Of a DNA stretch of 64,000 bases, positions 1,239-62,075 are shown one piece after another. Source of the stretch: Patescibacteria group bacterium (GTDB taxonomy: Bacteria; Patescibacteriota; Microgenomatia; UBA1400; PJMF01); assembly GCA_016861205.1 (NCBI GenBank), contig BOKX01000001.1:766528-830527 (forward strand). Reading direction: 5' to 3'. Both the position numbers and the translations under genes were made by a program. The stretch's first letter is position 1, and each line of letters starts with the position of its first letter. The notes under the pieces are model-generated. The model saw nothing but the letters and a program-made list of their open reading frames with translations, was not told where the DNA came from and did not search any database.

Positions 1239-3176
1239 TCAATCGAGCGTTGGTTTGGCTTTGGGAGTGCCCATGACTTTGGTGAAGTCGTCAGCATCCA
1301 ATGTCTCGACTTCTAACAGTTTAACAGACACAGCATCCAGTTGAGAACGGTGTTTCTTCAGCAACTCCATGGCACGCTTCTCACCTTGGCGAATGAAGGC
1401 AGCCACTTCGGCATCTACCTGCTCTTGTAAACGGTCAGAGATCTTGCTGGGTTCACCCCAAGCTCGGCCGTAGTTCATGGTTTCATACTGAGGGTTAAAG
1501 TTCATCGGACCCAGTTTGCTCATCCCGTAATCCATGACCATGGCTCGAGCAACTCGAGTAGCTCGATCAATATCTGAGCTGGCACCGCCGGTCAACTCGT
1601 TGAAAATCAACTTTTCAGCGGCTCGACCACCCAACAAAACAGCAATTTCATCTACCAACTCGGATTGAGTCGTTTGCACTTTGTCTTTTTCAGGTGGGGT
1701 CAACGTAAAACCTAAAGCCTGGCCGCGTGACACAATTGAGATGCGATGCACTGGATCAGCATATGGTGACATATGGGCCACCACTGCGTGACCTGCCTCG
1801 TGATACGCAGTCATTTTGCGTTCTTGCTCATCTTGCAAACGTTTCTTACTTGGACCCAACTTAACTTTGAGTGAAGCTTCTTCCAAATCTGACATGGTGA
1901 TGGCTTCACGATTATCGCGAGCGACTGCGATGGCCGCCTCATTGAGCATGTTTTCGAGATCTGCACCTGAGAAACCCACAGTCCGGCGTGCGACTCGTTC
2001 CCAGTCCACATCCTTGCCAAATGGTTTTGATCGAGCATGAATACTAAGAATAAACTTGCGCTCTTCGAGATCTGGCAGGTTGACAGTGACTCGTCGATCA
2101 AACCGACCAGGACGAACCAACGCCGGGTCAAGCATGTCACCACGATTAGTGGCCGCCATCACAATCACGTTATCATTTTGAGTAAAACCGTCCATCTCCA
2201 CCAAAATTTGGTTCAACGTTTGCTCACGCTCGTCATGACCACCAAAGCTGCCGTGGCCACGGACTCGACCAATTGCGTCAATTTCATCGATAAAAATAAT
2301 TGATGGGGCAACCTTTTTAGCAGTTGCGAACAGGTCTCGCACCCGAGAAGCACCCACCCCCACCAACATTTCCATAAACTCAGAACCGGCAATCGATAAG
2401 AACTGGACATTAGCTTCGCCAGCTACCGCTCGAGCCAACAGAGTCTTACCAGTACCTGAGGGGCCAACGAGCAACACACCCTTGGGAGTTCGGGCACCAA
2501 GCTTGGTGTACTTCTTGGGATGTTTCAAGAAATCGACAATTTCCTCGAGTTCTTTCTTGGCTTCGTTCATGCCGCCAACGTCCTTAAACTTGACGTCTTG
2601 CTTACCTTTGACAAACACTTTGGCTTTACTGCGGCCAATCCCCATGATGCCATCCTGTGAACCTCTGGCCTGACGGAAAATCAGGAAAAAGAACACCAGC
2701 ATCAGACCAATTGGCAAGACGTTAATCACGATTTGCCAAAAAATTTCCCCCGCTGATAAGTTTTCAACTTCAATTTCAACGGCAGTCACGTCGATGTTGG
2801 CATTCCGCAAAATGGTAGCCAACTCCTGACCCTCCTCTTTGCGAGCCACTCGCACACTGTCATCGCCGTACCGGACTCGCAGTTGTGAGCCAGCCACTTC
2901 AATCTTTTTGACCTTTTGGTCACGCACATCTTGAACCATTTGGCTCACAGTAATTTGGTTGGAGTTACCGCCAGTCACCAGTGAAATGAGAAATGGCAGG
3001 AACAACACCCCCAACAAAATGTACAGCAAGCCCTTGTTCATCAGGCGCTGCGGATTAAGTCGGACTTCAAACTGTCGAGGTGTTGGGGTCGGTTGACCAC
3101 CATTTTGACCAGCACCTGAAGGTGGTGTTGGAGTGTTTACTTGAGAATTAGAGGTGGTTACGGGTTTTTTAGGCAT
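1239..3176 (-). CDS. ftsH: ATP-dependent zinc metalloprotease FtsH
   Basis: 645 aa with Walker [15 protein letters not shown] region and the zinc motif HEAGHAVV. The N-terminal low-complexity tail is followed by a TM segment. Confidence 0.95.
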
Positions 3177-3223
3177 AGAAACTGTCGGTTATTCTAGCAT
3201 GTAGTTTTGGACCTGATGGCAGA

Positions 3224-3565
3224 TTAATGAATAATCCAACCAGGTTCGCACTCAGCAGGTAATGGCGTTAGAAATGGGCGCTCGTCACTGTCAGCCATGA
3301 TCATCATGCCCTGACTGACACTCTCGCCCATCTTGCGCTCCGCTAAGTTGACTACAAATGCATACTTATTACCAATGATTTCGGCTGGTTGATACCATGC
3401 CTTGATCCCAGACAAAATAGTTTTGATCCCAATCTCCGGTCCAAAATCAACTTCGAGCTCTAACAGCTTCTCACTCCAGTCGGGTGCACTAGCGGCAACC
3501 ACCAGGCCAACTCGGAGGTCTAGTTTATCAAAATCTGGGTACACAATAGTTGGTTTCATAGGCAT
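3224..3565 (-). CDS. tRNA-binding domain protein (CsaA/Trbp111/MetRS C-terminal-like)
   Basis: 113 aa. The DLRVGLVV...MIMA pattern is typical of the OB-fold tRNA-binding domain. Confidence 0.65.
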   Translation of the reverse strand: MPMKPTIVYPDFDKLDLRVGLVVAASAPDWSEKLLELEVDFGPEIGIKTILSGIKAWYQPAEIIGNKYAFVVNLAERKMGESVSQGMMIMADSDERPFLTPLPAECEPGWIIH

Positions 3566-3682
3566 AGCGCGGTGACATATGACACCGCTGGAACGTGATT
3601 ATAGCGTAGTGCCTTGACCAAAACCATATCAAACGGGAGGTGACTGCATGGTCACATGACATCAGGCTTTGACGGCGCGAGA

Positions 3683-4549
3683 TTACAGTTCTTCGATTTG
3701 AACGCTCGGATTCATGTCTGGAGCTTCAATCAACTTGAGGTACTTCTCGGTAGTGGTAATGCGTTTGTGCCCAACCAGTTGTGAGACATACACCAGAGGT
3801 GTGCCTGCCTTGAGCTGCTCCACGATGAAGGTGTGACGCAAGTCGTTGACTTTGGCATCTTTGATACCAGCCAACCGGAAGTAACGATCAATAGCAGTCC
3901 GAATGTTACGAACTAAAAATGGCCGGCAGGTTTTGGTCAAAAAAACCGTTTTTTCTCTGGCTCGTGGTCGAATTTGCAGATACTCTTGAAGAGCATTTTT
4001 GGCTGCGGCGTTAATAGGCACTTTGCGTGCTCCGCGAGCGTTCTGTGGCTGGATGTACATGATGTTTCGATCTAAATCCAGATCTGCCAACTGCAAAGCC
4101 GCCAGCTCACTGATCCGCATACCGGTTTGCAACAACACCTCAACGATGGCCGACATCCGAGCATCACCGCGACAGGCATCGCGCAACGCTCGATACTCAA
4201 TCTTAGATAAGATCCGAGGCGGACTGGCGTCAAATTTAGGGTGGATAATGACTTCAGCCGGGTTTTCAAACACCACACCCTCAGCCACTAAATAGCGGAA
4301 AAACGCCTTGATTGAGTTAATTTTTCGAGAGATAGATTTACTGGTGTATCGCTGCTTTTTCAGTAGTTCTTTGAATTCATCAATGTCGGTCGAGCTCACT
4401 AACTGAGCTTCCAGTTTGCTCTGCTTGGTCAAAAACTCAACTAACTGCTCCACGTCTTTACCATAGGCCAAAACGGTGGCAGGTGACTTTCCAGCTTGGC
4501 GTAAACTATCCACAAAGTGCTGGTGTCCATCAAGTAAACTCATCGACAT
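3683..4549 (-). CDS. tyrosine site-specific recombinase, XerC/XerD family
   Basis: 288 aa. N-terminal SAM-like core-binding domain and C-terminal catalytic domain with R...HxxR...Y (LRHTFIVEQL...GHKRITTTEKY). Confidence 0.8.
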   Translation of the reverse strand: MSMSLLDGHQHFVDSLRQAGKSPATVLAYGKDVEQLVEFLTKQSKLEAQLVSSTDIDEFKELLKKQRYTSKSISRKINSIKAFFRYLVAEGVVFENPAEVIIHPKFDASPPRILSKIEYRALRDACRGDARMSAIVEVLLQTGMRISELAALQLADLDLDRNIMYIQPQNARGARKVPINAAAKNALQEYLQIRPRAREKTVFLTKTCRPFLVRNIRTAIDRYFRLAGIKDAKVNDLRHTFIVEQLKAGTPLVYVSQLVGHKRITTTEKYLKLIEAPDMNPSVQIEEL

Positions 4550-4671
4550 CGTGTGCTTTCAACAGGTATAGTACAGTGTGTTATCTGATTAGTACTAGAC
4601 CAAAACGACCGCCGCAATAGCTTTTGGCAGGTCGCAAAGTCTTATAATATCACAGACAGGGATTCTCTGCA

Positions 4672-5028
4672 ATGCTAAAACTGCTCCGTTCCCCTCTAGT
4701 GATGCTGCTCAGTCTCGTAGCAACTTGCATCCTTCTGTGGTCACTGTGGGGCACCGTCAAACGGTCGCGATCTTCAGCAGAACAGGTCGGCCTATTAGAA
4801 CAAGAACTTCACCAAATGGCAAGTGAGGTTTCACGCCTAGAACAAAAAGTCTCTGTCGCTAGCTCAGCGGCAGCCCAAGAAAAAATTATTCGCAATGAGC
4901 TGCTGATGCAAAAACCAGGCGAGTACGTAGTACAGTTGCCACCCCTGGAAACAACAACCCCCACTCCCACGCCCGCACCCAGTTTGTCACCATGGCAAGG
5001 GTGGCAGCAGGTCCTTGGTTTACGGTAG
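4672..5028 (+). CDS. septum formation initiator family protein (FtsB/DivIC-like)
   Basis: N-terminal TM, coiled coil, then IIRNELLMQKPGEYVVQLP resembling the FtsB/DivIC C-terminal motif. The tail is P/T-rich. Confidence 0.5.
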   Translation: MLKLLRSPLVMLLSLVATCILLWSLWGTVKRSRSSAEQVGLLEQELHQMASEVSRLEQKVSVASSAAAQEKIIRNELLMQKPGEYVVQLPPLETTTPTPTPAPSLSPWQGWQQVLGLR

Positions 5029-5658
5029 TAACGGTAACGGTGAGTTGTTAAACGGTCGACCATCCGCCGGCGCCGCTGCCTCAATGACTTGATCACCATT
5101 CAAACGAAAGTACTTGAGTTTAGCTACAGGACCAGATGAGGTGGATGTTTTGGTAGCTGGTGACGTGTCAACTTCGAAGTAGCGAACTTCGACAACTTGA
5201 TCCTGAATCATAACCGCATTAACTTGGACCTGACCATTGAACTTAGTGGCGGCAAGTTGCGTGGGCTGATCGGGGTTACTTAAAATGACTAAATATGACG
5301 TCACCTCTAGATCAGCACCTTGTTTGAAAACTAATGTCACCACTTCCGGCGTCGAGTCACCAGTTAGATCGCCGACGGTGGCTACATTGGTCTGGAGGGC
5401 AAACTTTTCTATGCCACTAGCTGGACTGGCTACTGGGCGCATCAGGTAGCCGCCTTTGAGCGGAACTGGCCCTCCATCGAGCGTATAACTGACATCTTTG
5501 AGCGCGGTCAAAACTGGGTCAGCAGCTGCCTCCAATGAAGCTGGACTCGGAGCAACAGTGGCTTTGCTCCGGTACCAGTAGGCTGCTCCAACCATCACGA
5601 AACCTATCACCAACAGACCAACTTTGGACATCCAGACGGGCAATCGCAATATTTTCAC
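5020..5658 (-). CDS. hypothetical membrane-anchored protein
   Basis: 212 aa ORF with an N-terminal TM helix. No recognisable motifs. Confidence 0.5.
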   Translation of the reverse strand: MKILRLPVWMSKVGLLVIGFVMVGAAYWYRSKATVAPSPASLEAAADPVLTALKDVSYTLDGGPVPLKGGYLMRPVASPASGIEKFALQTNVATVGDLTGDSTPEVVTLVFKQGADLEVTSYLVILSNPDQPTQLAATKFNGQVQVNAVMIQDQVVEVRYFEVDTSPATKTSTSSGPVAKLKYFRLNGDQVIEAAAPADGRPFNNSPLPLLP

Positions 5659-5722
5659 TGCCTCTATTCAAAAGAAAAATTGGTTACCTGGCAATCGGCA
5701 ATTTCAGAAGCAAACACCTTGA

Positions 5723-6409
5723 TTACTGTGGCAAAGCCGACCATGGGCCTGGTTCGGCCGGCGGAAAAATGGGTAATGTCTTAGCCGACCAACCTGAAGT
5801 AATGGTGGGGTTTAGCGTAAAAAAGCGATACTCCAACTCAGAGTCAAACACCGCCACAATGTACCGGCTTGGCCTGATGATCAACGTGTAACGCAGCGGG
5901 TTTTCACTGACTATGTACGCAACTTTGGCGTTGGCTACCATCTGTCGGTAGCTGCGATTCATCCGGTCAGTTCCCTGACCCAACTCCTCTAGTGTTCGAG
6001 GTAGTGGTCGGCCATCGATCAGGGTTTGTTTTAAGTCATTATGCAAGTTTGCAGCAGCCGACACGGCTGGCCACAGTTGCCCACCGGCTGAACAACTGAA
6101 CACTCCAACTATGATGATGACTCCAATCCAAACAGGTATAGCTAAGGCAGTCAGACTGGTAATGATCCCACCGATAGCTAGTTTGTCGATCAATCGGACT
6201 TTTTGCTTCAAGATATCCCAGTACAGGGCCAACAACACTAAACCGCTGACCAAGCTCAGTAGCACAGCCAAGTGGATACCATATCGGGAACCTTCTTGGC
6301 ATCGGTCAAAAAACCACTGATCAGAAAACCATCGGTCGTACATATCTAGTTGTCTGCTTAAGTCATTGTAACTGAAGAAAACATCGTGTGGTGATGTGTT
6401 ACCCACCAA
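5723..6409 (-). CDS. hypothetical membrane protein
   Basis: 228 aa ORF with two central TM helices. The start is uncertain and overlaps the SET gene end. Confidence 0.45.
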   Translation of the reverse strand: MVGNTSPHDVFFSYNDLSRQLDMYDRWFSDQWFFDRCQEGSRYGIHLAVLLSLVSGLVLLALYWDILKQKVRLIDKLAIGGIITSLTALAIPVWIGVIIIVGVFSCSAGGQLWPAVSAAANLHNDLKQTLIDGRPLPRTLEELGQGTDRMNRSYRQMVANAKVAYIVSENPLRYTLIIRPSRYIVAVFDSELEYRFFTLNPTITSGWSAKTLPIFPPAEPGPWSALPQ

Positions 6410-7145
6410 ACAACCGCCGCCGAATCGCAGGCGGCAACATGGCTTTTAAGCCAAGACGAGCCGGTTCATTCAGCACCATTTTGCCGGGCAGATGGTGGAG
6501 TCCTAAGCTCAACAAGTAAGGTGACAAGTCTGGAGCTAGTAATGCTCGCTCAGTGTCAGACAAGTGTAAGTATCCCCACACCCATCGCACAAACGTACCT
6601 TCATCATCCAATTCAGCAAACTCACCACCCTGAGCTTTCAGGTCAGCTTCCGTAGTGTCGTAGTTGAAATACAACACCTCACCCCTCTTGATCGGGCGCT
6701 TGGCTGTCAGCACAATCCGATAGGTGCCGGGAACTTCACCAGGCAGATAGCGAAAGAAACAATTGGGGGTTGAGCTGTGCAGCAGGTAGTTATCAAAGTC
6801 TGTTGAAACCAAAAATGCATTCTCGCCGACTTGCAGCGCATGAACCAAGTGCTTCGGCGATAATAACTCACCAGCTACCACTTGGCCTTGCATCCCAAAA
6901 ATAACCTCGCCCGCCACGAAACCTCGAGTGGCCACTAGCCCATGACCACCGTGCATTTCTTTGATCTTGATACCCAAGTGATGTGGTTCCTGGACATGAT
7001 CTGCCCAGTCCTTGGTGTCAGCATAAAGTTGCAACAATCGACCGACATCAGCTTCGCTGACCAGTGTGGAGTCACCAAACACCTGAGTCGGAATCTCTGA
7101 GTAAGGGGTTATCTCCGTAGCTGGATGCTCTTTGTAACCTGACAT
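6399..7145 (-). CDS. SET domain-containing protein (putative protein-lysine methyltransferase)
   Basis: GHGLVATRGFVAGEVIF (N-SET), LHSSTPNCFF (the NHSCxPN-like pseudoknot motif), GEVLYFNYD (the ELxFDY-like motif). Confidence 0.65.
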   Translation of the reverse strand: MSGYKEHPATEITPYSEIPTQVFGDSTLVSEADVGRLLQLYADTKDWADHVQEPHHLGIKIKEMHGGHGLVATRGFVAGEVIFGMQGQVVAGELLSPKHLVHALQVGENAFLVSTDFDNYLLHSSTPNCFFRYLPGEVPGTYRIVLTAKRPIKRGEVLYFNYDTTEADLKAQGGEFAELDDEGTFVRWVWGYLHLSDTERALLAPDLSPYLLSLGLHHLPGKMVLNEPARLGLKAMLPPAIRRRLFGG

Positions 7146-7161
7146 GTGCTAGGGTCTACGT

Positions 7162-8487
7162 TTAATACCGATAGTGGTCGCTCTTAAATGGACCGGCTTC
7201 GGCAACATTTAAATACTCGGCCTGTGACTCAGTTAGCTTGGTCAGCTTGACTCCGATGTGCTCGAGGTGCAAAGCCGCCACTTTCTCATCTAAGTGCTTT
7301 GGCAAACGGTAGACGTCAACTTTATGTGGTTTGGTGAACAACTCAATTTGAGCCAAAACTTGGTTACTGAAGGAGTTTGACATCACAAATGAGGGATGGC
7401 CCATGGCGCAACCTAAGTTCACTAATCGACCTTCAGCCAACAAAATCAGACTGTGACTGGACTGACCCTTTTTGGCTGGAAAAGTGTACTGATCAACCTG
7501 GGGCTTAATGGTATTTTTGACAATTCCCGGGTACTCGTTGAGTTCTTTGACTTGGATCTCGACGTCGAAGTGACCAATGTTACAGACAATCGCGCCATCT
7601 TTCATGGCGGCCATGTGCTCGATGCGAACCACGTCCTTACAACCAGTGGCAGTCACAAAAATATCGACTTCGTGGATGACATCTTCGATGGTCTTAACTT
7701 CATAGCCTTCCATGGCTGCTTGCAGCGCACAAATTGGATCAACTTCGGTGACAATGACTCGGGCGCCACTGTTGCGCAACGACTGAGCACTGCCCTTGCC
7801 GACATCACCATAGCCTGCCACTAAAGCAACTTTGCCAGACAACATGACGTCAGTGGCTCGGCGGATAGCGTCAACCAGCGACTCTCGGCAACCATACAAG
7901 TTGTCAAACTTAGACTTGGTCACTGAGTCGTTGACGTTGATGGCGGGAATCTTCAACTTGCCATCGCTCATCAGTTTGTAGAGATGATGCACGCCAGTTG
8001 TGGTCTCTTCGGAGACACCTTTAATGTTGGGTAACATTTCTGGGTGTTTGTCGTGAACCCAAGCTGTTAAGTCACCGCCGTCGTCCAGGATCATGTTCGG
8101 ACCGACCAGCTTACCGGCTTTGTCCTTGAACATGAGTGTCTGTTCAGTGCACCACCAGTACTCGTCTTCAGTTTCACCTTTCCAAGCAAACACAGGTGTG
8201 CCTTCGGCAGCGATGGCCGCGGCGGCGTGGTCTTGCGTGGAGAAAATATTGCATGAAGCCCAGCGGACTTCGGCGCCGAGTTCTTGCAGCGTTTCAATCA
8301 GCACTGCGGTCTGAATGGTCATGTGCAAAGAACCGGCGATTCGGGCACCTTTAAGGGGTTTTTGTTTAGCGTACTCGCGGCGAATGCTCATCAGACCAGG
8401 CATCTCTTTTTCAGCCAGTTCGATCTCTTTGCGGCCCCACTCAGCGAGGGAAATGTCTTTAATTTTGTAGTCGGCGACTTTGGCCAT
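7162..8487 (-). CDS. ahcY: adenosylhomocysteinase (S-adenosyl-L-homocysteine hydrolase)
   Basis: 441 aa. Canonical N-terminus [28 protein letters not shown] and an NAD-binding GYGDVGKG. Confidence 0.95.
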
Positions 8488-9570: not shown

Positions 9571-10179
9571 TTAGCGAATCGTTGGGGTAAGATGCTCTGT
9601 GTAGTGACACTCTACCCAGGAAAAACCCTTGTCGTCTCTAATGATGGTAGTCACCGAACATTCCTGAATAGCAATGTCAGCTCCTGACACAATGTGGGTC
9701 GGCACTCGACTGACAACATCATCAAAATCAAAAATGAGCTTCAAAAAATCCGCAATTGCTCCCCCATGAGTAATCAAAGCCACGTGGCCTGCTGATTGGG
9801 GTACGAGTTCATCGATGACTTGTTTGATACGCTGACTGGTCTCTAGCGACGAGTCACCAAAAAGTGGTTGATAGGTTGGGTCTTGGCTGGCTTTGTGCCA
9901 ATCATCGATAAACTCTGCATGCGACTGTTGGAGATAGTTCTCATAATCCATCCGCTCTTTCAGCCGATGATCGAGTTCCACCGGCAGTCCTAAAGCCTTG
10001 GCAATATGACCAGCAGTTTGCTGTGTCCGAGTCATCGGACTGGCAATGATTCTTTCAATCGGTTTTGACTTCAAAAACTGCCCGGTCAATTGAGCCTGTT
10101 GATGGCCAACTTCGGTAAGGTGCGGGTCAGGTCTGGTGGCCATTTTTTGGCCGTGACGGACTAAGTGAACGGTCACCAT
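9571..10179 (-). CDS. histidine phosphatase family protein (phosphoglycerate mutase-like)
   Basis: LVRHGQ catalytic RHG motif and a downstream ITHGG. Confidence 0.8.
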   Translation of the reverse strand: MVTVHLVRHGQKMATRPDPHLTEVGHQQAQLTGQFLKSKPIERIIASPMTRTQQTAGHIAKALGLPVELDHRLKERMDYENYLQQSHAEFIDDWHKASQDPTYQPLFGDSSLETSQRIKQVIDELVPQSAGHVALITHGGAIADFLKLIFDFDDVVSRVPTHIVSGADIAIQECSVTTIIRDDKGFSWVECHYTEHLTPTIR

Positions 10180-10180
10180 A

Positions 10181-11500
10181 TTATTTTGCCGCCGCTAGAT
10201 ACTTTCGCAGCAACTCCACTAACAATTTCGGCACCAGTTTCATTTTGGCCGGTGGTTCAACGTAGGCAATGCGCATCTGCGTTAAACCTGGGTTAGGCTG
10301 GTCAGCTGGCACTGAGTAAAACCCGGCCATTGGGGCGACGAGCAGCGTCACTCGCTCACCATCGATTTCAACTGAACCTTGGGTAGCACAGAACATCACG
10401 AACTCCATCATGTCGAAACCAGCCGGCGCCAACTCTCTGACATCCACCACTGAATACAGGGCTGCGTCAGGCTTGGACACGATCAGTTTAGGTTGAAGCG
10501 ACTTCAGCTCATTGGTCAAACTGGTCGCTAACTCTTGGTAGTATGTTCGCTGCTCTGCATACCAGGCTTGCAAATCAGCTGTCGACTCGTGAGCTAAAGC
10601 TCCAAAAATGTACTGACCAATCGCGTTGGCACACAAGTTGGCAGTGTTTTCAGCTACTGCTTGCTCGTGAAACTTTTGATTGTCGGTCACAATTGCACCG
10701 ATCCGTAACCCACAAGCATTCCACACTTTGGAACTCGACTCGATGCTCATGCGCCGCCCGGTGATGCCGGGCACAGCCGCTTCGGTAATGCCCCAGACAC
10801 TGCTGGTCGTACCGCCAGTGTAAAACAGCTCACGGTAGGCTTCATCGCTGATGAGCCATAGGTTGTGTTTGACGCACAGCTCACCAAGTTTGTTCAAAGT
10901 TTCCTGAGGGAAAAACTGCCCCGTGGGATTGTCATAAGGAATAACCACCAAGGCAGATGGCCGCTCGCGCTCAATGACTGCTTCAATCTCAGATAAATCG
11001 GGTAAAGCAAAGGTGCCGTCCGGTTGCAACTGGCGAGTCACCGACACAGTTCGGCGACCGGTTCGGCCAGCCATGGCTAAGTAGTTTGAGTAAGCGGCAT
11101 CGATCAACAGAACGGGTTGCTCGGTAGAACCGGCTGGGCCACCCACACCCAAGATCACCAACTCCATGGCTTGGCTGCCACCATCAGTGATCTGCGAGTA
11201 CAAACCAGCGGTATCAAATCCGCTGCTGGCAATCACTCGCAAAAAAGCTTCGTTCGCTTCAGACTCACCAATGGTTGGGGTGTACTTAACAACGCCATCC
11301 TTGAATGGCGACTCAGCTGCACCCAAGTTTTTTAGGCGTTGCTGCATGGCTGGGTGCATCGGCAGTGACACATTACCAATAGCGGTGTTAATGGCTTTGA
11401 CGCCATCGGTTCGCTTCATGAACTCAATTTGAGCGAGCCGAATTGGTGAAGGGCGACGGGCCGCGTAGTAAGCTGATAGCACTGGTTGGTCGGCTGACAT
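10181..11500 (-). CDS. PLP-dependent aminotransferase, class I/II
   Basis: 439 aa. The SSSKVWNACGLRIGAIV lysine (SxxK) region and overall fold I aminotransferase pattern. Confidence 0.8.
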   Translation of the reverse strand: MSADQPVLSAYYAARRPSPIRLAQIEFMKRTDGVKAINTAIGNVSLPMHPAMQQRLKNLGAAESPFKDGVVKYTPTIGESEANEAFLRVIASSGFDTAGLYSQITDGGSQAMELVILGVGGPAGSTEQPVLLIDAAYSNYLAMAGRTGRRTVSVTRQLQPDGTFALPDLSEIEAVIERERPSALVVIPYDNPTGQFFPQETLNKLGELCVKHNLWLISDEAYRELFYTGGTTSSVWGITEAAVPGITGRRMSIESSSKVWNACGLRIGAIVTDNQKFHEQAVAENTANLCANAIGQYIFGALAHESTADLQAWYAEQRTYYQELATSLTNELKSLQPKLIVSKPDAALYSVVDVRELAPAGFDMMEFVMFCATQGSVEIDGERVTLLVAPMAGFYSVPADQPNPGLTQMRIAYVEPPAKMKLVPKLLVELLRKYLAAAK

Positions 11501-11546: not shown

Positions 11547-13040
11547 TTAGAGCAGGTGCGCAGCTGCGGCTGGCAAGTCGAGATTGAAGAAATGGGTGAA
11601 GAACTCAAAATCACCAGTGGTATCTGCCAACATGAGACGAACGTACGGCGCTAAGATAGCCTTAATCTGTTCTTGATCTGTCATGTAAGGCGTTGCAATA
11701 AGTTGATCCATAGTGGCAAACTCTTCGTGGTCACGAATATTCAAGTGATAGCTGGAGTACAAACTCCAAACAATAGTGGCCACTAACTTGAAAAGTTGGG
11801 CTGACTCAACAAATGACAGAATCTCGACAGGAAACTGTTGCTGCACATCTCTCGGCAGAACATGTAACTTCGTCAAGTGGTGGATAGCCAAACTGGCAAT
11901 GCCACATCCATAAAAACCAGTTTCTTCGATGTACTCTTTGAGATCATCTGCCAGATGGCCTGAAGGATAAACTTTTCGCTGCCAACGTCTATCCATGGTA
12001 CTCACCATGTCGATGTAAACCCTGACGCTTGCCTGAAACATTTCAATAAAATCTACGCCGCTGACTGTGTCAGCAGGAATCGATTTGAGGTACTCTCGGA
12101 CCAGCACCTCAACCTCTGCCACTGAGGCTGGCTCATGACTTTCAGCCAGCACTCTCAGCCGATCAAAAATTGCAAAGCAGTCCGCATATGGCTGTAGCTC
12201 AGCTTTAGAAATAGTCCGACTCCAGACCCGATCCGCATTGGTGTCATCCAACACCGTCCTGACTTGCATTAGTTGATTATCACTTCGGACAAATGACTTC
12301 AGATCAAAGTCAGAAAATCTCAGCAACCGGTCAACGCTTTCCTGGTTCCCTTCGCCTTCTAAGTATTGTCGTGGGTGGTAATGGGTCCAGAACAAATCAG
12401 TCTCAGCTTCATTAAGACCTGCACTTTCAATGTTTGCCGCAATCGCCCGTTCGAACTCATGGGTCAGAAGCGCCCACTTCGTCGTTGCCCATGCAAAGTA
12501 GTTGTTCGGAACTTCTTTGACGACAACCCGCTCACCACTGTTTATTTTTTGGTCAACCAATTGACTAATGACATCTTCCAACAGACTTGTCGACTCTTCA
12601 AAAAAATACTTGGCAATATCTTGCACTAGTTTGTCGAAATGCTCTTGGCACCAACGAATCGTTCGATCCTCATTCAAGTACGCTAACGTGACTTGGCCTT
12701 CGGTGCCACCCTTCGGACTATCGGTCTCCAACGACACAAACCACTCATCAAAACTGTTAACCCGCAGAGCTAAGCGAATGTTGATCCCTTCTGCCAAAAA
12801 ACCTGCTACTTCCAACGGAAAATCATCGGGCAACCGGAGGCGCCTGTTCAAAGTGCTAACTAAGCTAACCACCACTGGTTCCGACTCACTCAGCCACTCA
12901 ACCAACCCGTAGGCTAACAACGACTCGTCGGGTTCCAGATCGTGAGCAATGTCTAGTTCCAGTAAGCGTTCAGCTACTTCTGGTGTGTACTGCACTGGTA
13001 AACCAATTTGTTGTTCAGGTGATAGATTACTGGCCGGCAT
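11547..13040 (-). CDS. hypothetical protein (497 aa), divergent from the PP-loop-like gene
   Basis: Long ORF with good coding periodicity. No recognisable motifs. Confidence 0.55.
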   Translation of the reverse strand: MPASNLSPEQQIGLPVQYTPEVAERLLELDIAHDLEPDESLLAYGLVEWLSESEPVVVSLVSTLNRRLRLPDDFPLEVAGFLAEGINIRLALRVNSFDEWFVSLETDSPKGGTEGQVTLAYLNEDRTIRWCQEHFDKLVQDIAKYFFEESTSLLEDVISQLVDQKINSGERVVVKEVPNNYFAWATTKWALLTHEFERAIAANIESAGLNEAETDLFWTHYHPRQYLEGEGNQESVDRLLRFSDFDLKSFVRSDNQLMQVRTVLDDTNADRVWSRTISKAELQPYADCFAIFDRLRVLAESHEPASVAEVEVLVREYLKSIPADTVSGVDFIEMFQASVRVYIDMVSTMDRRWQRKVYPSGHLADDLKEYIEETGFYGCGIASLAIHHLTKLHVLPRDVQQQFPVEILSFVESAQLFKLVATIVWSLYSSYHLNIRDHEEFATMDQLIATPYMTDQEQIKAILAPYVRLMLADTTGDFEFFTHFFNLDLPAAAAHLL

Positions 13041-13093
13041 ATTTTTTGAGTAGGCGCGAATTATAGCAAACCCAGATCTGGTATACTAACCAC

Positions 13094-14398
13094 TTGGAGA
13101 CACCCCACATGATTCGAGCCAATCACCTGTCATTTGACCAATTTTCGATTGATAACAGTACGTTTACTTTCTCGTTTCAACTCGACGGGGAACCAGTTGA
13201 GATAACCCTCGCACACTCGCTGCCCATTGATCTGTCAACCGAAGCTCAACAAACCGTCGCCTTCAACTTAGGCATGTGCTACTTCCATGACTTGGCCGAG
13301 CTGACCTTACCGCATCACCTGTACATCAATTTTGGTCTGAGTGAGTTGCAGCTGGAGTTCTGGCGACGCACCTACCAAGAAGTATCCAAAGAAAAACTGC
13401 TCGTCGATGGTTTAGATATTGAAGTGTTAGATGGCGACTGGAGCAGCAAATCCGATCAGTCAGAGTTCGCTCCCTTCTCACTGCCTGCAGACCGGACGCG
13501 CACGGCGTTGTGTTTGACGGGCGGCAAAGAGTCACTGGTGTTACTTAAAAAACTTCGTCATCAAACAGACTTGCTCTTGTTCTTCCTCAATCCGGAAACT
13601 AGTGTGCATCGGCAACGCGTGTTTGAACGAGTCAAAAACGACTTCCCGACCACCAAAACTATTTCCGATCGACCAAGCATTTTGAATGCCATCAAAGCCA
13701 AGTATCAAACTGATTTGGAAAGTGGCCTCGACATGGCACACTTAGTATTTAACACGTTGTTGTACGGCAACAGCTGCCAACACGTCGTGATCGGCAATGA
13801 GTACAGCTCAAACTATCCCAACACGGTTTATCAAGGGTATGTTGTTAATCATCAGTACGTGAAAACGATTTACTTTGCCCGGCGACTCAACGAGTACTTA
13901 GCTCAGTTTGTGACCCCAGACTTTCAGTACTACTCGCCGGTGTTTGGGATGTACGAGTATCGCATCGCCCAATACTTGTTTGAAGATGAAGAGTACTTAG
14001 AAGTTTGGACCAGCTGCAACCAAAGCACCAATGAGGTGAACTTTTGCTGCCACTGTGCCAAGTGTGCCTTCACCTACTTAACTGCACTGGTGTACACCAA
14101 CCCCGAGTACTTGGCCAAGTTCTTTTCGCGAGATTTGTTGACGGACGTCGAGCTCTACCGACCACTGATGGACTTCACTGGCGAGAAACCGCTGGACTGT
14201 GTGGGTGAAAAGAAGGAAGTCTGGGTGGCCTTGTGGCAGCTGTCGCAAACAGCTGAGTTTGCCGACAAGCCGGTCATCAAGTACTTCCTGGAACGCGTCT
14301 TCCCCTTCATCGAAGCTGAGCTAATGGACTTTAAAACCGAGATCAGCGCGGTGCAAAAAGTACCCCAGCAACTGCCAGCTGAGTTGGAAGTGGCGTAG
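13094..14398 (+). CDS. hypothetical protein with PP-loop-like (TGGKES) motif and QueC-like C-terminal Cys cluster
   Basis: ALCLTGGKESLVLL resembles the SGGxDS PP-loop. SCNQSTNEVNFCCHCAKCAF resembles the QueC zinc cluster SCx(n)CGxCxxC. It also has a ~130 aa N-terminal extension. Confidence 0.55.
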   Translation: METPHMIRANHLSFDQFSIDNSTFTFSFQLDGEPVEITLAHSLPIDLSTEAQQTVAFNLGMCYFHDLAELTLPHHLYINFGLSELQLEFWRRTYQEVSKEKLLVDGLDIEVLDGDWSSKSDQSEFAPFSLPADRTRTALCLTGGKESLVLLKKLRHQTDLLLFFLNPETSVHRQRVFERVKNDFPTTKTISDRPSILNAIKAKYQTDLESGLDMAHLVFNTLLYGNSCQHVVIGNEYSSNYPNTVYQGYVVNHQYVKTIYFARRLNEYLAQFVTPDFQYYSPVFGMYEYRIAQYLFEDEEYLEVWTSCNQSTNEVNFCCHCAKCAFTYLTALVYTNPEYLAKFFSRDLLTDVELYRPLMDFTGEKPLDCVGEKKEVWVALWQLSQTAEFADKPVIKYFLERVFPFIEAELMDFKTEISAVQKVPQQLPAELEVA

Positions 14399-15384: not shown

Positions 15385-15390
15385 ATAGTG

Positions 15391-15459
15391 TTGCGGGACT
15401 AGGAGTCGAACCTAGCCTGTGAGATTATGAGCCTCACGTGCACCGTACACTATCCCGCG
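15391..15459 (-). tRNA. tRNA(CAU anticodon): Met or fMet, with an unpaired C1·A72 (initiator-like)
   Basis: Minus-strand CGCGGGA-TA-GTGT-ACGGT-GCAC-G-TGAGG-CTCATAA-TCTCA-CAGG-CTAGG-TTCGACT-CCTAG-TCCCGCA-A. The T-arm GGTTCGACTCC is canonical. The D-loop is short and total length is 69 nt. Confidence 0.65.
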
Positions 15460-15520: not shown

Positions 15521-16150
15521 TTACTCCGCGTCAGGCTGGGTCACATGTGGCGTCTCCACCACCCACGCTTGGCCTTGGTCAAACCGTTCCACGGTGAATC
15601 GCTGCTGGGCAAACTGGTACGCCAAGTCGTAGACAGCTGGCAAACCGAGTTCCTTAGCCAAAATCAGAGCGGCTGGCTCTTGGTACATTTTCTCCGGACC
15701 TCTAGTGAAAATCTGGGCCGGCCGCACCGCAAACTCTGTCCCCAAATGTTCAACAACCTCTGTTAGTGCGTGCTGATGGTTTTCACTGCCGTACCCTTCC
15801 ACCAACCCCAGTAACACCCGCGCTGTGACACCAGTACTCGCCAGCTGCTCAGTCTCGACCTGAGCCATTACCCCAGTGTCATACCGGGACAGCAGATCAC
15901 CCAACCGGCCCAAAGCCCGCCGGCAGGCCTCAACAGTCGCTAAACCGTATTTGCGCCGTGGATAGTGGGTAAAGTGATACTCGCTGCCAGCATCTGAGGC
16001 TGCTTTGGCCACCAAAAAGCCAAAGAAAGTAAAGCGTTGTTCTTGAGAAACCCGATGCAAAACTTGAGCAAATAATGGGGCATCAACTGTGGTCTGAATG
16101 CACCCTGACCATAACTCGACTGGGGCTAGTTCTCGAAATTGATTAGACAT
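15521..16150 (-). CDS. hypothetical protein (209 aa)
   Basis: ORF with coding-like composition. No confident motif. Confidence 0.5.
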   Translation of the reverse strand: MSNQFRELAPVELWSGCIQTTVDAPLFAQVLHRVSQEQRFTFFGFLVAKAASDAGSEYHFTHYPRRKYGLATVEACRRALGRLGDLLSRYDTGVMAQVETEQLASTGVTARVLLGLVEGYGSENHQHALTEVVEHLGTEFAVRPAQIFTRGPEKMYQEPAALILAKELGLPAVYDLAYQFAQQRFTVERFDQGQAWVVETPHVTQPDAE

Positions 16151-16231: not shown

Positions 16232-16305
16232 GGCAAGGTAGCTCAGTTGGTTAGAGCAGCGGATTCATAAACCGCAGGTCGTGAGTTCGAATCTCACCCT
16301 TGCTA
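16232..16305 (+). tRNA. tRNA(CAU anticodon): Met, or Ile2 if lysidinylated
   Basis: GGCAAGG-TA-GCTC-AGTTGGTTA-GAGC-A-GCGGA-TTCATAA-ACCGC-AGGTC-GTGAG-TTCGAAT-CTCAC-CCTTGCT-A, 74 nt. Confidence 0.8.
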
Positions 16306-16312
16306 CGTTAAT

Positions 16313-22045: not shown

Positions 22046-23155
22046 ATGTCAACCAAAATGGTGAGTACCAGCCAACTATCGGAGTCACAAGTTGTAACTG
22101 AAGCTGTCGCATGTCTGCAAGCTGGCGGACTAGTTATCTTCCCGACTGAAACCACCTACGGTGCTGGAGTAGATGCGACCAATCCAGAAGCAGTCGCCAA
22201 ACTCTTGGCCTATAAGGCGCGGCGCGAGGGTAAACCGCTATCTATCGCTGTGACCTCGGAAGCCATGGCTGCCGAGTATGTAGAGTTGAACGACTCAGCC
22301 CGTCGGTTGTATGCACGATTCCTGCCGGGACCAGTCACCGTGGTTTCCAAAAGCAAAGAAAAAGTTGCCCCTGGAGTTGCTTCGGAGTTTGGAACAGTTG
22401 GCGTTCGTATCCCGGCCTATGACCTCGTGCTCAAGATGGTAGCAGCTCTGGGACGACCGATCACTGCCACTTCTGCCAACGCTTCCGATGCCAAAAGACC
22501 TTACTCAATAACTGATATTTTCGACCATTTATCAGCTAAACAAAAATCGCTCATTGATCTGGTTATCGATGCTGGTCAGCTGCCACCGAACCCACCTTCG
22601 ACAGTGATTGACACTACCCATGACACCCCGGTGACTTTTCGCCAAGGCGAAGTCCGTGCGGCCGAAGCTACTGCCGTCAGTGGCAGCTGGGAGCTGTCTT
22701 CAGGGTCCGAATCCGAAACCAAAGCCATCGCCGGTAAGCTCCTGCTCAAACACTGGAACCAAGTCCGTGAGCGCGGATTAGTGATTGGACTCAGTGGCTC
22801 CTTGGGCGTAGGCAAAACCATTTTCAGCAAAGGGGTGGCCGAGTTCTTGCAGATAACCGATGAGATTACCTCACCAACCTACACGTACATTGAGGAGTAC
22901 TCGTACCAACGCCACCAGACTGCAGGTACGTTCTACCATCTTGATGTCTGGAAAGTTGAGTCAGCCGAAGTTGCTGACCGCCTAGGAATCCCGTCATTGA
23001 CCAGGGCTGGGTCGGTTGTGGTTATCGAGTGGTGGGACCAAGTTAAAAACTGGCTCACCCTCCCCAACCAGACGACCCTCATTGAAGTAACTATCACCGA
23101 TACCCCAGACAAGAACGACCAACGCAAATTGCAGATCGTTGAAAACGTCTTATAA
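22046..23155 (+). CDS. fused TsaC/Sua5/YrdC (threonylcarbamoyl-AMP synthase) + TsaE (P-loop ATPase) protein
   Basis: N-terminus: LVIFPTETTYGAGVDA and a YrdC fold. C-terminus: GLSGSLGVGKTIFSKG P-loop followed by SPTYTYIEEY (the TsaE SPTF motif). Confidence 0.8.
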   Translation: MSTKMVSTSQLSESQVVTEAVACLQAGGLVIFPTETTYGAGVDATNPEAVAKLLAYKARREGKPLSIAVTSEAMAAEYVELNDSARRLYARFLPGPVTVVSKSKEKVAPGVASEFGTVGVRIPAYDLVLKMVAALGRPITATSANASDAKRPYSITDIFDHLSAKQKSLIDLVIDAGQLPPNPPSTVIDTTHDTPVTFRQGEVRAAEATAVSGSWELSSGSESETKAIAGKLLLKHWNQVRERGLVIGLSGSLGVGKTIFSKGVAEFLQITDEITSPTYTYIEEYSYQRHQTAGTFYHLDVWKVESAEVADRLGIPSLTRAGSVVVIEWWDQVKNWLTLPNQTTLIEVTITDTPDKNDQRKLQIVENVL

Positions 23156-23692: not shown

Positions 23693-24778
23693 ATGCACCC
23701 GCCCATTCTAGCCATCGATACCTCTTGTGACGAAACTGCTGTCGCAGTCACCCAAGGCAACTTAATTCTGAGCAATGTGGTGGCTTCGCAAGTGGAGTTA
23801 CATAAACCCTACGGCGGCGTGTTCCCGACGGTGGCCAAGCTGGCTCATCGGGAAAACTTGCCAGCGGCTAGTAAACTAGCCCTCAAACGCGCCGGCATCA
23901 CGCCCTCTGAACTAGCCGCCGTGGCTGTTACCCAAGGCCCTGGTCTTGCTCCAGCCCTGGAGGTAGGAATTGAGTTTGCCAAACAACTCGCGAAGGAGTG
24001 GGACAAACCGCTGATCGCGGTCAACCACGTTGAGGGCCACTTGCTGTCGGTGCTGGCTCGGCCCCGACCAAAAACCAGTCTGCCGGCTACACCTGAGATG
24101 GAGGCGGAGTTGCCTTTTCCGATTTTGGGAGTCATCGTTTCGGGCAAACACAATGACTTTGTCCGCATCAATGGCCTTGGGCAGTACCAGCTGCTCGGCA
24201 GCACCATCGATGATGCCGCTGGTGAGGCATTGGATAAAGTTGGTCGAATGCTCGATCTTGGGTATCCGGCCGGGCCGGTCATTGAAGAGTTTGCCAAACG
24301 TGGCAATGCCCGAGCCATTGAGTTTCCACTGCCTATGACCACCAGTGGTGACTTCAATGTCAGCTTCTCAGGCATGAAAACTTTTGCCCGAAACAAAATC
24401 GAAGCACTTTCGGGTGAAGCTTCGCTCTCATCGCAAACTATCTATGATTTTTGTGCGTCATTTCAAAGAGCGGTAATCAGGGCAATTTTATATAAATTGA
24501 ACAAAATTTTACAAACAGAGTCATTTGGTGAAGTCTGGCTGGGTGGCGGCGTAGCGGCCAACACGGCTTTGCGTTCTGAGCTTCGGGCCATGCTCAAACC
24601 GTACGGTCTGAAACTAAAAGTCCCCTACACCAAAAAACTCTGCGGCGACAACGCAGCCATGATCGGGATAGTAGCCGGCTACAAATTGCACCGCGGCGAA
24701 GTGGCGAACCCATCCGACTTAGACCGCCGACCTAGGTGGAACTTGAACGAGCTAAGCGCTGTTGCCGGAACTGAGTGA
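23693..24778 (+). CDS. tsaD: tRNA N6-adenosine threonylcarbamoyltransferase TsaD (Kae1/Gcp family)
   Basis: ILAIDTSCDETAVAV N-terminus and HxxGH metal site (NHVEGHLL). Confidence 0.9.
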   Translation: MHPPILAIDTSCDETAVAVTQGNLILSNVVASQVELHKPYGGVFPTVAKLAHRENLPAASKLALKRAGITPSELAAVAVTQGPGLAPALEVGIEFAKQLAKEWDKPLIAVNHVEGHLLSVLARPRPKTSLPATPEMEAELPFPILGVIVSGKHNDFVRINGLGQYQLLGSTIDDAAGEALDKVGRMLDLGYPAGPVIEEFAKRGNARAIEFPLPMTTSGDFNVSFSGMKTFARNKIEALSGEASLSSQTIYDFCASFQRAVIRAILYKLNKILQTESFGEVWLGGGVAANTALRSELRAMLKPYGLKLKVPYTKKLCGDNAAMIGIVAGYKLHRGEVANPSDLDRRPRWNLNELSAVAGTE

Positions 24779-50225: not shown

Positions 50226-50852
50226 GTGAAGAAGAAGACTGCCCAAGTTAACATCAACCTGGCGCCTAAAGATCCGTTTTTTGACACGACTCTGGGGAAG
50301 GTGTTGCGGTGGTCACTGACGGTCGGCCGCTACATCGTGATTTTCACAGAGTTAGTCGTTATTTTTAGTTTTGCCACCCGTTTCACTCTCGATAGACGCG
50401 TCACTGATTTAAACGACTCCATCTTTCAAAAGGAAAGCGTAATCAAGTCGTATGGGGACTTGGAAGATAAAGTTCGACTCACCCAGTTTCAAATCGAGCA
50501 GTACCAACAAGTCGAGCAACTCTCCAATCTTGCTGACATTTTCCCAATCTTGAGCGCCATTACACCCCAAGACGTTCGGCTGGATAATTTAGTTATTAAA
50601 CCAGCCTCGGTTAGTTTGGAAGGCACCACCCTAACTCAAAGTTCTTTTAACACTTTGATCAATAACATTCAACTTTCGGGCAAGTTCTTCAATGTCACCG
50701 TGGATCGAATCGAAAGTGATCAAGAAAAAAATCCGGGAATTCACTTTGTGTTGCATGCTGCAACACAGCCTCCAGAAGTCAAAACCACTGTTCAAAAAAC
50801 CGAAGCCAAAACCAGCGTACTAGATCGAACCCAAGGACTGGAAGGCATTTAA
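50226..50852 (+). CDS. type IV pilus assembly protein PilN-like
   Basis: N-terminal VNINLAPK (INLLP-like motif), single TM, coiled coil. Confidence 0.6.
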   Translation: MKKKTAQVNINLAPKDPFFDTTLGKVLRWSLTVGRYIVIFTELVVIFSFATRFTLDRRVTDLNDSIFQKESVIKSYGDLEDKVRLTQFQIEQYQQVEQLSNLADIFPILSAITPQDVRLDNLVIKPASVSLEGTTLTQSSFNTLINNIQLSGKFFNVTVDRIESDQEKNPGIHFVLHAATQPPEVKTTVQKTEAKTSVLDRTQGLEGI

Positions 50853-53698: not shown

Positions 53699-55492
53699 AT
53701 GATTGCTTCATCCCCAAAGTTCCGTAAAAAAGCCTCACTCACCCAACTTCCGATCAGTATGGTGGTTGGACTAGTTGTGGTAGCCATCATGGTGGTGGGG
53801 GCCGTAGCCGCTATTTACTTGTCAAATCAATCAACAGAACTTCGCCAGCAAGCCGCTGGTGAGCGAGCCGTGGTTTGTGCTCCCGGGACTTGGTCTTCGT
53901 GTGGTTCAAATGCCACACCCACCTGTCCCACTGGCCAAGCTCGACGTTGTAGCACCAACAATACCTGGGGAAACTGTCAAACACCTCCCGCCGGCACGTG
54001 CGGCGGTAGTGTGCAACGCTGCGGTGTCTGTAACAACAGTGGCGACTGTGCGGCTGGTCTAACTTGCCGGGTTGTTGCTGCAGGATATCGTTGTGTGACC
54101 AGCACTGATACCAACTCAGCCTGTCCAAATGACGGCGGCACTGGCCAGCCTATCCCAAATTCATATGGTTCATGTAGCAATGGCTGTTGTACGGTGACAC
54201 CGGCCGGCTCAGCTGCAGGCTGCTACGTTGTTGGGTACCAATGTCCAGGTGGTGAATTACCTTGTGGTCAAAATGGCAGTACTTCCAATGGCACAATGTG
54301 TAATGCGGCTGGCTACTGTGGCAGTCAGCAAGTCGATCTACGTTGTCCGGGCTACTCAACAGCAGGCTCTTTCCAAACCTCTAGCAAACCCATGAACTGT
54401 GGTAGCACGCCAACGAACCCACCAACGACCCCTTCAACACCTCCAGGTACTGGTGGCGCGCCAACCCCAGTTCCGACCCAACCCCCAACACCAATTAGTT
54501 GTGCTGGCTTGGAGATTCTCGACCCTGTTACCTTACAAAAGTTACCCACCAAACCAACTACAGGTCAGTCTGTTCGATTCCGCTGTATTGGGGCGGCCGG
54601 ATCACAACCTGATTACTACTTCTTTGCCTACACGGATGTTCTCGGTCAGGCTATGAAGCTGATTTACCAAGGTCCCAGTGACCTGACATTCCCCATCACC
54701 GTCCAACCCTACATGGTTGTGCAGTGTAACCCTTGCCGTGGCAGCGAGTGTTCTTCTGGAGAAAGCGTCAATCAAAACTGTACCTTCATCAATCAGGCTC
54801 CACCAAGCCCTACACCTAGTCCCTCACCGACACCAGTTGCAGTTGCTTGCTACAGCTTGACACAGTCAACTGTTGCCACGAATCAGAATGGTACCGTTAC
54901 CTATCGATTTACTTGTGGCGGTGCCCCTGGAAGCAACTACTATTTCTTCGCCTACCAAAGCAGCCCAACGGGACCAATGCAACCATTCGCTCAGGGTCCA
55001 GCGAACACAGCAGATCTGACAGTGGCAACCAACTCATACTTAGTTGTGCAGTGTAACCCTTGCGTCGGTAGTACCTGTTCTAGCAGTGCCTCAGTCAATA
55101 ACAACTGTACCTATCGTCAGGCGGCTATAACCAGTCCAACCCCTGTAGCCTCTGCAGTGTTGCCATCACCAACTCCAGCCATTACCCCTGGACCGCAATG
55201 TTTAGGCATCACTTTGTCGAACACTAATGCACAGGTCGGTGATGTGGTTACTGCTACCTGTACCCAAGTTCCAGGTGCCGCCCGCTACATTAGCCGTGTT
55301 ATGTTACCAAGCGGTCAGATCCGGGATCTAAACATGACTGGTCGAGTATCAGAGCAAGTACAAATCACTAGTGCCGGTACATACGTTTTCCAGTGTCAGA
55401 TTTGTACCGACAACACGACTGCCAGTTGTTTCGCCTACGAACCAACTTCAGTCATATATGAAGACCCAATTGCACCACCAGGAACCAATTAG
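53699..55492 (+). CDS. cysteine-rich secreted mosaic protein (paralog 1)
   Basis: N-terminal leader/TM ...ELRQQAAG, a Cys-dense region, P/T linkers, and three copies of a ~85-aa domain (VRFRC.GAAGS..YYFFAY...VQCNPC.GS.CSS..SVN.NCT). Confidence 0.6.
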   Translation: MIASSPKFRKKASLTQLPISMVVGLVVVAIMVVGAVAAIYLSNQSTELRQQAAGERAVVCAPGTWSSCGSNATPTCPTGQARRCSTNNTWGNCQTPPAGTCGGSVQRCGVCNNSGDCAAGLTCRVVAAGYRCVTSTDTNSACPNDGGTGQPIPNSYGSCSNGCCTVTPAGSAAGCYVVGYQCPGGELPCGQNGSTSNGTMCNAAGYCGSQQVDLRCPGYSTAGSFQTSSKPMNCGSTPTNPPTTPSTPPGTGGAPTPVPTQPPTPISCAGLEILDPVTLQKLPTKPTTGQSVRFRCIGAAGSQPDYYFFAYTDVLGQAMKLIYQGPSDLTFPITVQPYMVVQCNPCRGSECSSGESVNQNCTFINQAPPSPTPSPSPTPVAVACYSLTQSTVATNQNGTVTYRFTCGGAPGSNYYFFAYQSSPTGPMQPFAQGPANTADLTVATNSYLVVQCNPCVGSTCSSSASVNNNCTYRQAAITSPTPVASAVLPSPTPAITPGPQCLGITLSNTNAQVGDVVTATCTQVPGAARYISRVMLPSGQIRDLNMTGRVSEQVQITSAGTYVFQCQICTDNTTASCFAYEPTSVIYEDPIAPPGTN

Positions 55493-55517
55493 CAGCCAGC
55501 ACTCAGCGGAATAACGT

Positions 55518-56468: not shown

Positions 56469-56493
56469 ATCCCAAAAATGAGCCAAAAGTTCC

Positions 56494-56526
56494 AGAGCCA
56501 GCGTCAGCTGGCTCTGTTAGTTCTAG
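56494..56526 (+). terminator. candidate intrinsic terminator/attenuator between array genes
   Basis: AGAGCCAGC-GTCA-GCTGGCTCT then GTTAGTTCTAG. Confidence 0.4.
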
Positions 56527-56687
56527 ACTGGCGATGAGCGCACTTGGCTTCGGCTGAGCCTCTCCCGATGCTTTACCGAATAAATCGACTATTGACGAGT
56601 GGTCAACAAAATCGCTATCCTGATGATTAGGCTTGTCACGAGTGGTTCTGTCGTTGGAACACCGCAGACAGCTCTACAAAACGAATC

Positions 56688-58760: not shown

Positions 58761-58774
58761 TATAAACACACTGT

Positions 58775-59941: not shown

Positions 59942-59956
59942 ACTAAAGGACCTCAG

Positions 59957-60886: not shown

Positions 60887-60895
60887 GGATGGACC

Positions 60896-62066: not shown

Positions 62067-62075
62067 CTTGGATTT

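Follow-up and report, generated by a model that had tools for sequence, protein, structure and literature searches.

Two divergently transcribed genes are described here from a 64,000-nucleotide stretch of DNA (the window) of a Patescibacteria group bacterium (assembly GCA_016861205.1, contig BOKX01000001.1, positions 766,528 to 830,527). The first, at window positions 13109..14398 on the plus strand, encodes a member of the MurL family and falls into a clade of that family (clade B) that is separate from the MurL proteins linked to the ligase MurD2 (clade A). The second, at 11547..13040 on the minus strand, encodes an orphan protein of 497 amino acids (aa), and the two genes do not form a module. 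The reading favoured here, to which an even chance is given, is that the clade-B protein performs MurL-type chemistry on a different, or differently delivered, substrate; it probably does something other than the textbook MurD2/MurL step.

Membership of the MurL family is shown by several matches. An identical 429-aa product in public assemblies carries the Pfam domains MurL_N (PF26299) and MurL_epimerase_C (PF26298), at E <= 1e-5; a local copy of Pfam returned nothing for the protein, because both entries postdate that copy. The sole NCBIfam match is NF041275 (MurL_Xanthmoales; E = 4.1e-33, 114.5 bits), the model of UDP-N-acetyl-alpha-D-muramoyl-L-alanyl-L-glutamate epimerase (NCBIfam), and it aligns residues 136-431 with positions 139-443 of the 447 in the profile. 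The score falls far below the curated equivalog cut-off of 700 bits, as do those of MurD2-linked homologues from bacteria of the candidate phyla radiation (CPR). Nearly all of the 135 homologues found carry both MurL domains, so that what a preliminary description of this DNA had called an N-terminal extension is the family's own N domain; with more than 130 homologues, the gene is not a chance open reading frame (ORF). The motifs common to MurL proteins at large (GGK[DE]S, NExS, NHQxxK, SCN-x8-C-x2-C-x-K-C and KPxxCVGxxxE) are all present and are invariant across 68 sequences drawn from clades A and B. Length is also alike (429 aa against 447 aa in MurL), and the two-domain architecture is common to both.

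Counted from a TTG codon, the ORF runs from 13094 to 14398 on the plus strand (434 aa); these limits, and those of the 497-aa ORF on the minus strand, agree with the preliminary description. The likely start, as judged from the sequence, is the ATG at 13109, because a GGAG stands nine bases before it (13096..13099, plus strand; a probable ribosome-binding site) and 429 aa is also the length in public gene calls. The gene then comprises 429 codons plus the stop, and the divergent intergenic gap, given earlier as 53 bp from the TTG, becomes 68 bp. Residue numbers of the motifs below count from this ATG.

The product would be a soluble enzyme of 429 aa, composed of the family N domain, a PP-loop core and a helical C-terminus. 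The MurL_N domain extends over residues ~1-125 (13109..13483, plus strand; approximate boundaries, from Pfam and the secondary structure of the model) and forms a three-strand sheet with long helices in the AlphaFold2 (AF2) model, the mean predicted local distance difference test score (pLDDT) of which is 96.1. It is followed by a QueC-like PP-loop core of the adenine nucleotide alpha-hydrolase type (residues ~126-330; 13484..14098, plus strand), with a Rossmann-like alpha/beta fold in which a glycine-rich PP-loop follows the first strand, as in the PP-loop ATP pyrophosphatase superfamily. The loop, TGGKES (residues 137-142; 13517..13534, plus strand), is predicted from its motif to bind the pyrophosphate of ATP; its residues G138, G139, K140 and S142 are kept in both clades, G139 being invariant in the alignment of 68 homologues and the other three nearly so. 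Candidate substrate-binding or catalytic residues lie in GNEYSSN (229-235) and VNHQYVK (246-252; together 13793..13864, plus strand), where N230, E231, S233, N247, H248, Q249 and K252 show no variation across the same 68 sequences. A Cys cluster, S-C-N-x8-C-x2-C-x-K-C (residues 302-319; 14012..14065, plus strand), is a predicted zinc site: its C303, C313, C316 and C319 are invariant, and the four-Cys knuckle that they form probably binds zinc. The C-terminal helical region (residues 331-429, ~100 aa; 14099..14395, plus strand) carries KPLDCVG, within an invariant K360-P-x-x-C364-V-G-x3-E370; that C364 might act as a catalytic acid/base is speculation. The variant PP-loop and the SCx9CCHCxxC cluster noticed earlier are thus present at residues 137-142 and 302-319 and conserved in the homologues. 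The earlier remark that the protein is about twice as long as QueC, with an N-domain of ~130 aa, holds for the N domain (~125 aa), and falls short in that there are additions at both ends, including the C-terminal region of ~100 aa.

The solved folds nearest to the model are QueC and Cap9. The relationship to QueC cannot be established from sequence alone, since an alignment by hhalign of the MurL-like family profile with E. coli QueC is confined to 32 columns at the PP-loop and its surroundings (E = 0.015); only the fold appears to be shared, according to the model. The Pfam QueC family (PF06508) gives no match at E <= 1, and E. coli QueC, as a tblastn query, fails to pick up the ORF even at E <= 10. 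Unlike QueC (PF06508; B. subtilis 3BL5), the window protein lacks the motifs YxQxHxxE and VPxRN, has TGGKES where QueC has SGGxDS, and is twice as long. The Cys motif of QueC, described as C-x8-C-x2-C-x2-C (PMC13329287), reads C-x9-C-x2-C-x2-C in the window protein; E. coli QueC ends in TCYN-x6-C-x2-C-x2-C, whereas the window protein has SCN-x8-C-x2-C-x2-C. The earlier label "QueC-like" is therefore apt for the PP-loop fold and the Cys4 core but not for the family, which is MurL. Cap9, a QueC-family protein of type IV CBASS (cyclic-oligonucleotide-based antiphage signalling system; 9NTO), is alike in fold, yet the window protein shows a far stronger signal of homology to MurL; the motifs of QatC (QatABCD), including C-x19-CGxCxxRR, are missing. 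TtuA, LarE, NAD synthetase, ThiI and TilS resemble the protein at the superfamily level only, their accessory domains and substrates being different.

MurL requires ATP and Mg2+ and releases AMP, and adenylation of the Glu alpha-carboxylate has been proposed (PMC5808125, PMC8788868). This chemistry is compatible with the PP-loop fold of the window protein, and a QueC-like PP-loop core would account for the ATP-to-AMP stoichiometry of MurL. Reviews of 2018 and 2021 state that no conserved domain of a known kind is present in MurL and that its mechanism is unclear (PMC5808125, PMC8788868), and a literature search found no paper that ties MurL or MurD2 to the QueC fold or to CPR bacteria.

The homologues of the window protein are split by a score gap (E <= 3.8e-49 against E >= 1.6e-32) into two clades, which are reciprocally monophyletic in a neighbour-joining tree. 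Clade B, which includes the window protein, is 33-73% identical to it, and clade A 21-30%. Most clade-A proteins come from Saccharibacteria or further Patescibacteria, and some from Proteobacteria, Planctomycetota and Acidobacteria. The distribution of clade B is sparse and patchy, the scan having found it in ~10 of the 185,579 GTDB species. With the Xanthomonas MurL model, clade-A proteins score 223-317 bits and clade-B proteins 83-132 bits (the window protein, 114).

The clades differ most clearly in their coupling to MurD. Loci were fetched from one genome per GTDB species (79 loci) and from Joint Genome Institute (JGI) metagenomes (80 loci), and are numbered with the prefix L; the locus scan was run with the narrower of two alignments (A2), the other (A1) being too diverse. 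A MurD-like gene was counted as adjacent if it was on the same strand and no more than 1 kb away, and the loci counted had 1.5 kb or more to either side. By this measure, 87 of 92 clade-A loci have such a gene next to MurL, and none of 24 clade-B loci does. The window gene conforms to this division, having no adjacent MurD2, unlike clade-A MurL; its activity is a putative one, read from sequence. The L-Glu signature of MurD2, defined by experiment (PMC8788868), is a Glu where E. coli MurD has Asp182 and an Arg where it has Lys348; it is present in 82 of the 90 ligases adjoining clade-A genes. From the frequent adjacency and from this signature, the MurD2/MurL route to D-Glu seems to be widespread among CPR bacteria and to extend past the taxa of the 2018 and 2021 reviews. 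The clade-A loci are L019-L086 and L109-L175 (pairs e.g. at L019:9092-12699 and L066:8612-11083), and the loci with an adjacent MurD-like ligase are mostly of Saccharibacteria or other Patescibacteria; in L019 the pair is embedded in a division and cell wall (dcw) cluster (mraY-murL-murD...murG).

The clades also differ in residues. Invariant in clade A and not conserved in clade B are K64, G137, R186, D189, N201-G-P203, E236, S251, S253, E257, R279 and P280. The clade-A signature K64/G137/R186/D189/E236/E257/R279/P280/F300/W312, the G137 of which belongs to GGGKDS, reads E/T/S/P/Y/A/F/G/W/F in the window protein. Clade B has invariants of its own, namely W111, W300, F312, K368 and W372. Several of the clade-A-only residues come after the strands 181-186, 223-227 and 273-275 of the AF2 model, and it is at these strand ends that the substrate face of Rossmann-like PP-loop enzymes lies.

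Clade-B neighbourhoods are heterogeneous, with some recurrent gene families. Genes of LAL-type ATP-grasp enzymes (ATP-grasp_4 with LAL_C2) stand beside 5 of 25 distinct clade-B loci (L010:11345-12685, L100:7311-8654, L018:7807-9177, L107:9633-11114 and L012:4885-7538) and beside none of 135 clade-A loci. D-Ala-D-Ala ligase (ddl) genes are found next to clade-B genes in two loci (L103 and L104), FemAB-like acyltransferases at two and DegT-type aminotransferases at at least four; in L013, genes of a UDP-glucose dehydrogenase and a NAD-dependent sugar epimerase lie directly upstream. YcaO or ThcOx-type genes occur at two clade-B loci, and a CntK_N racemase-like gene in L091.

Some of these neighbourhoods merit description in their own right. 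The LAL genes are often accompanied by DegT aminotransferases and a methyltransferase, and may form a small biosynthetic island with them. Locus L103 (3089-6966) holds two tandem clade-B genes (3089-4591 and 4614-5942), with the D-Ala-D-Ala ligase gene directly after them (5944-6966). A ThcOx/nitroreductase-type oxidase gene follows the clade-B gene on the same strand in L011 (10001-12671), and a YcaO cyclodehydratase gene does so in L016 (10001-12563); the context of both resembles the biosynthesis of ribosomal peptide natural products (RiPPs).

Taken together, clade B lacks the coupling to MurD2, has lost pocket residues and has different recurrent neighbours (LAL, Ddl, DegT, FemAB), which is why MurL chemistry on another substrate is put forward as an evenly balanced proposal. 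In mechanistic terms, ATP would bind at TGGKES, the enzyme would adenylate the alpha-carboxylate of its substrate with release of pyrophosphate and, later, of AMP, and the activated C-terminal amino-acid residue would then be epimerised from L to D. Adenylation and epimerisation are probably the same as in MurL, because all the family-invariant residues are kept in the window protein; the substrate class, a peptide or a nucleotide-sugar-amino-acid as a candidate, is uncertain, and the process that it serves is probably envelope or peptide biosynthesis. Clade B would be an older, separate branch, without genomic coupling to MurD2, the ligase that adds L-Glu, and would have lost residues of the active-site face that are invariant in MurD2-linked MurL. 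A narrower proposal, possible though tentative and rather less probable than not, is that clade-B proteins are functionally new AMP-forming C-terminal L-to-D epimerases that act on amino-acid or peptide conjugates made by LAL enzymes, possibly borne by a nucleotide sugar, and not on the product of MurD2.

Several points weigh against an altered substrate. For clade B, the use of ATP, adenylation, epimerisation, the binding of zinc and the class of substrate are all deduced from its sequences, and the clade-A-only residues are placed on the active-site face by strand order in the model and not by measured distances. Most of the LAL genes run towards the MurL-like gene in convergent orientation and are not co-transcribed with it. 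No homologue of the recurrent partner families of clade B lies within the 64-kb window, so that the substrate is suggested by relatives and not by the locus itself. Moreover, a homologue 73% identical to the window protein has been annotated by JGI as an orthodox MurL epimerase.

That annotation agrees with the simplest alternative: an orthodox MurL, served by an unlinked MurD2-type ligase encoded elsewhere (for instance in the dcw cluster), which would supply D-Glu for peptidoglycan in a genome without glutamate racemase. Both MurL Pfam domains, all the family-wide invariants and the NCBIfam MurL match (E = 4e-33) accord with it, as do the Ddl and the FemAB-like genes, each beside two clade-B loci. 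The window encodes two class A penicillin-binding proteins and MurJ; the organism therefore makes peptidoglycan. In the window together with 10 kb at each end (~84 kb), there is no Mur ligase gene (murD or other), no murI-like or other racemase gene and no D-amino-acid aminotransferase gene. The lack of a racemase gene in this interval accords with the orthodox role; the interval is too small a part of the ~1.15-Mb genome for a genome-wide statement about murD or murI, and a MurD2-type ligase may be encoded outside it. An orthodox MurL is nonetheless considered rather unlikely. The neighbouring MurD-like gene is absent from all 24 clade-B loci and nearly constant in clade A across many phyla, other Patescibacteria included, and clade-B proteins score half as much as clade-A proteins from the same superphylum, which argues for paralogy and not for drift of a lineage. 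Charged residues invariant in clade A are lost, the equivalog cut-off is missed by far, and clade B is of sparse and patchy occurrence.

A different outcome on the same fold is less probable still, and is regarded as improbable: the adenylated carboxylate might be handed to a nitrogen nucleophile, with amidation or ligation as the result and no epimerisation, on the model of QueC, NAD synthetase, sugar amidotransferases or Cap9/QatC. QueC and Cap9, the closest solved folds, are indeed amide-/nitrile-forming and conjugating enzymes, and nucleotide-sugar genes recur at clade-B loci (the UDP-glucose dehydrogenase and NAD epimerase of L013, and DegT at several). Yet the MurL-type invariants, including C364, H248, K252 and E370, are all kept, the QueC-specific motifs are missing, and no glutaminase or ammonia-delivering partner is seen nearby. 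The retained residues argue for MurL chemistry.

The orphan gene bears on a further alternative, that of the preliminary description, in which the two genes would form a nucleotide-modification or antiphage module akin to Cap9/Cap10, QatBC or Dpd. The QueC/Cap9-like fold, the divergent arrangement on a short common intergenic region and the absence of recognisable motifs in the 497-aa protein, which QatB-type partners share (PMC13329287), would be in keeping with it. The orphan is indeed devoid of recognisable domains, as had been noted, with no match in Pfam, NCBIfam, PADLOC or the PDB (by sequence profile). Against a defence role, PADLOC has no match for either protein even at E <= 1, and the QueC match in Pfam as well as the QueC and QatC signatures are missing; no queC, CD-NTase (cGAS/DncV-like nucleotidyltransferase), TGT-like (tRNA-guanine transglycosylase), Cap10, QatA, QatB or QatD gene lies nearby, and queD, queE, folE and tgt are not among the annotated genes of the window. 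The surroundings are housekeeping genes of unremarkable GC content, and the immediate neighbours of the MurL-like gene are the orphan, an aminotransferase, an EamA transporter and tRNAs.

Nor is the pair conserved across genomes. Among 5.8 billion clusters, a search by word index returns the 497-aa protein alone, and phmmer, run exhaustively on 1.84 billion representatives, yields one relative, P0132 (495 aa), which matches over its full length with 29% identity (E = 7.6e-47). The existence of this full-length relative shows that the orphan gene is no chance ORF; on the sequences searched, it is a real gene of extremely narrow lineage. The P0132 locus, from another metagenome-assembled genome, has genes for SecD, ribosome recycling factor and a peptidase around it and no MurL-like or QueC-like gene nearby. 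Conversely, a homologue of the orphan is encoded at none of ~25 related MurL-like loci, and a tblastn search with the orphan against all fetched loci gives matches only in the same species and in the P0132 locus. The neighbours of close MurL-like relatives are short ORFs with sugar-modification genes (L003), a methyltransferase with purine genes (L005) or MerR (L007), and yet others in L091-L094. Since the pairing is not conserved across relatives, the divergent arrangement is incidental; the module is largely refuted and thought very improbable, and nothing points to defence or to 7-deazaguanine chemistry.

Unannotated proteins of ~500-540 aa encoded beside the clade-B genes of L092 and L094 were considered as cryptic homologues of the orphan; they have no detectable relation to it, nor to each other. 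The orphan is acidic (isoelectric point 4.6), without a hydrophobic segment typical of a membrane span, and an AF2 model built on the two-sequence alignment was unusable (pLDDT 49). It is thus an acidic cytoplasmic, lineage-restricted protein of unassigned role, merely adjacent to the MurL-like gene.

The orphan gene heads a long co-directional minus-strand string encoding a class I/II aminotransferase, His_Phos_1, PfkB, S-adenosylhomocysteine hydrolase and SET proteins. In a related strain, an extra ORF of 145 aa (L176:2555-2992) sits between the aminotransferase and His_Phos_1 genes and is missing at window 10179-10181, so that small strain-level variation lies right beside the pair. Further along, the SET-domain gene (6399-7145) is directly downstream of the S-adenosylhomocysteine hydrolase gene (7162-8487; together 6399-8487), a pairing that is unusual for a bacterium with a genome of ~1.15 Mb. 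On the other side of the MurL-like gene, two tRNA-Met (CAT) genes (15390-15459, minus strand, and 16232-16306, plus strand) flank a 209-aa ORF (15521-16150) without a Pfam match, just downstream of the adjoining EamA transporter gene.

GroEL is 77-86% identical to proteins labelled Candidatus Woesebacteria, Pacebacteria or Patescibacteria group; the source organism is thus a CPR bacterium of the Microgenomates type with a small genome. Some other features of the window deserve mention. At 22046-23155, Sua5/YrdC (TsaC) and TsaE, of the pathway for N6-threonylcarbamoyladenosine (t6A), are fused in one ORF, with TsaD at 23693-24778. A tRNA-Ile with the anticodon TAT (UAU) is encoded at 61993-62067; this is an uncommon bacterial way to read AUA, the alternative being a lysidine-modified CAU tRNA. 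A PilN-like gene is found at 50226-50852. Six consecutive co-directional ORFs (597, 316, 690, 388, 309 and 345 aa) without Pfam matches span 53699-61933, upstream of Ser/Thr kinase genes, and this block is kept in the related strain L177.

To sum up, the locus itself holds a member of a catalogued enzyme family beside an unrelated orphan, and not a new defence or DNA-modification module; the value of the analysis lies mainly in the dichotomy between clades A and B and in what the MurL fold suggests about mechanism. A QueC-like PP-loop core with a Cys4 knuckle would explain the ATP-to-AMP stoichiometry of MurL, and names residues for mutation. MurL-like proteins fall into one clade that is coupled to MurD2 and one that is not, the latter with a pocket that appears remodelled and with different neighbours. 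A MurD2/MurL route as widespread in Saccharibacteria as it seems would bear on their cell-wall biology and on ideas for narrow-spectrum inhibitors. Lastly, if clade-B epimerases do act on LAL-made conjugates, Patescibacteria would possess a racemase-independent way to D-amino-acid-containing envelope or secreted molecules.

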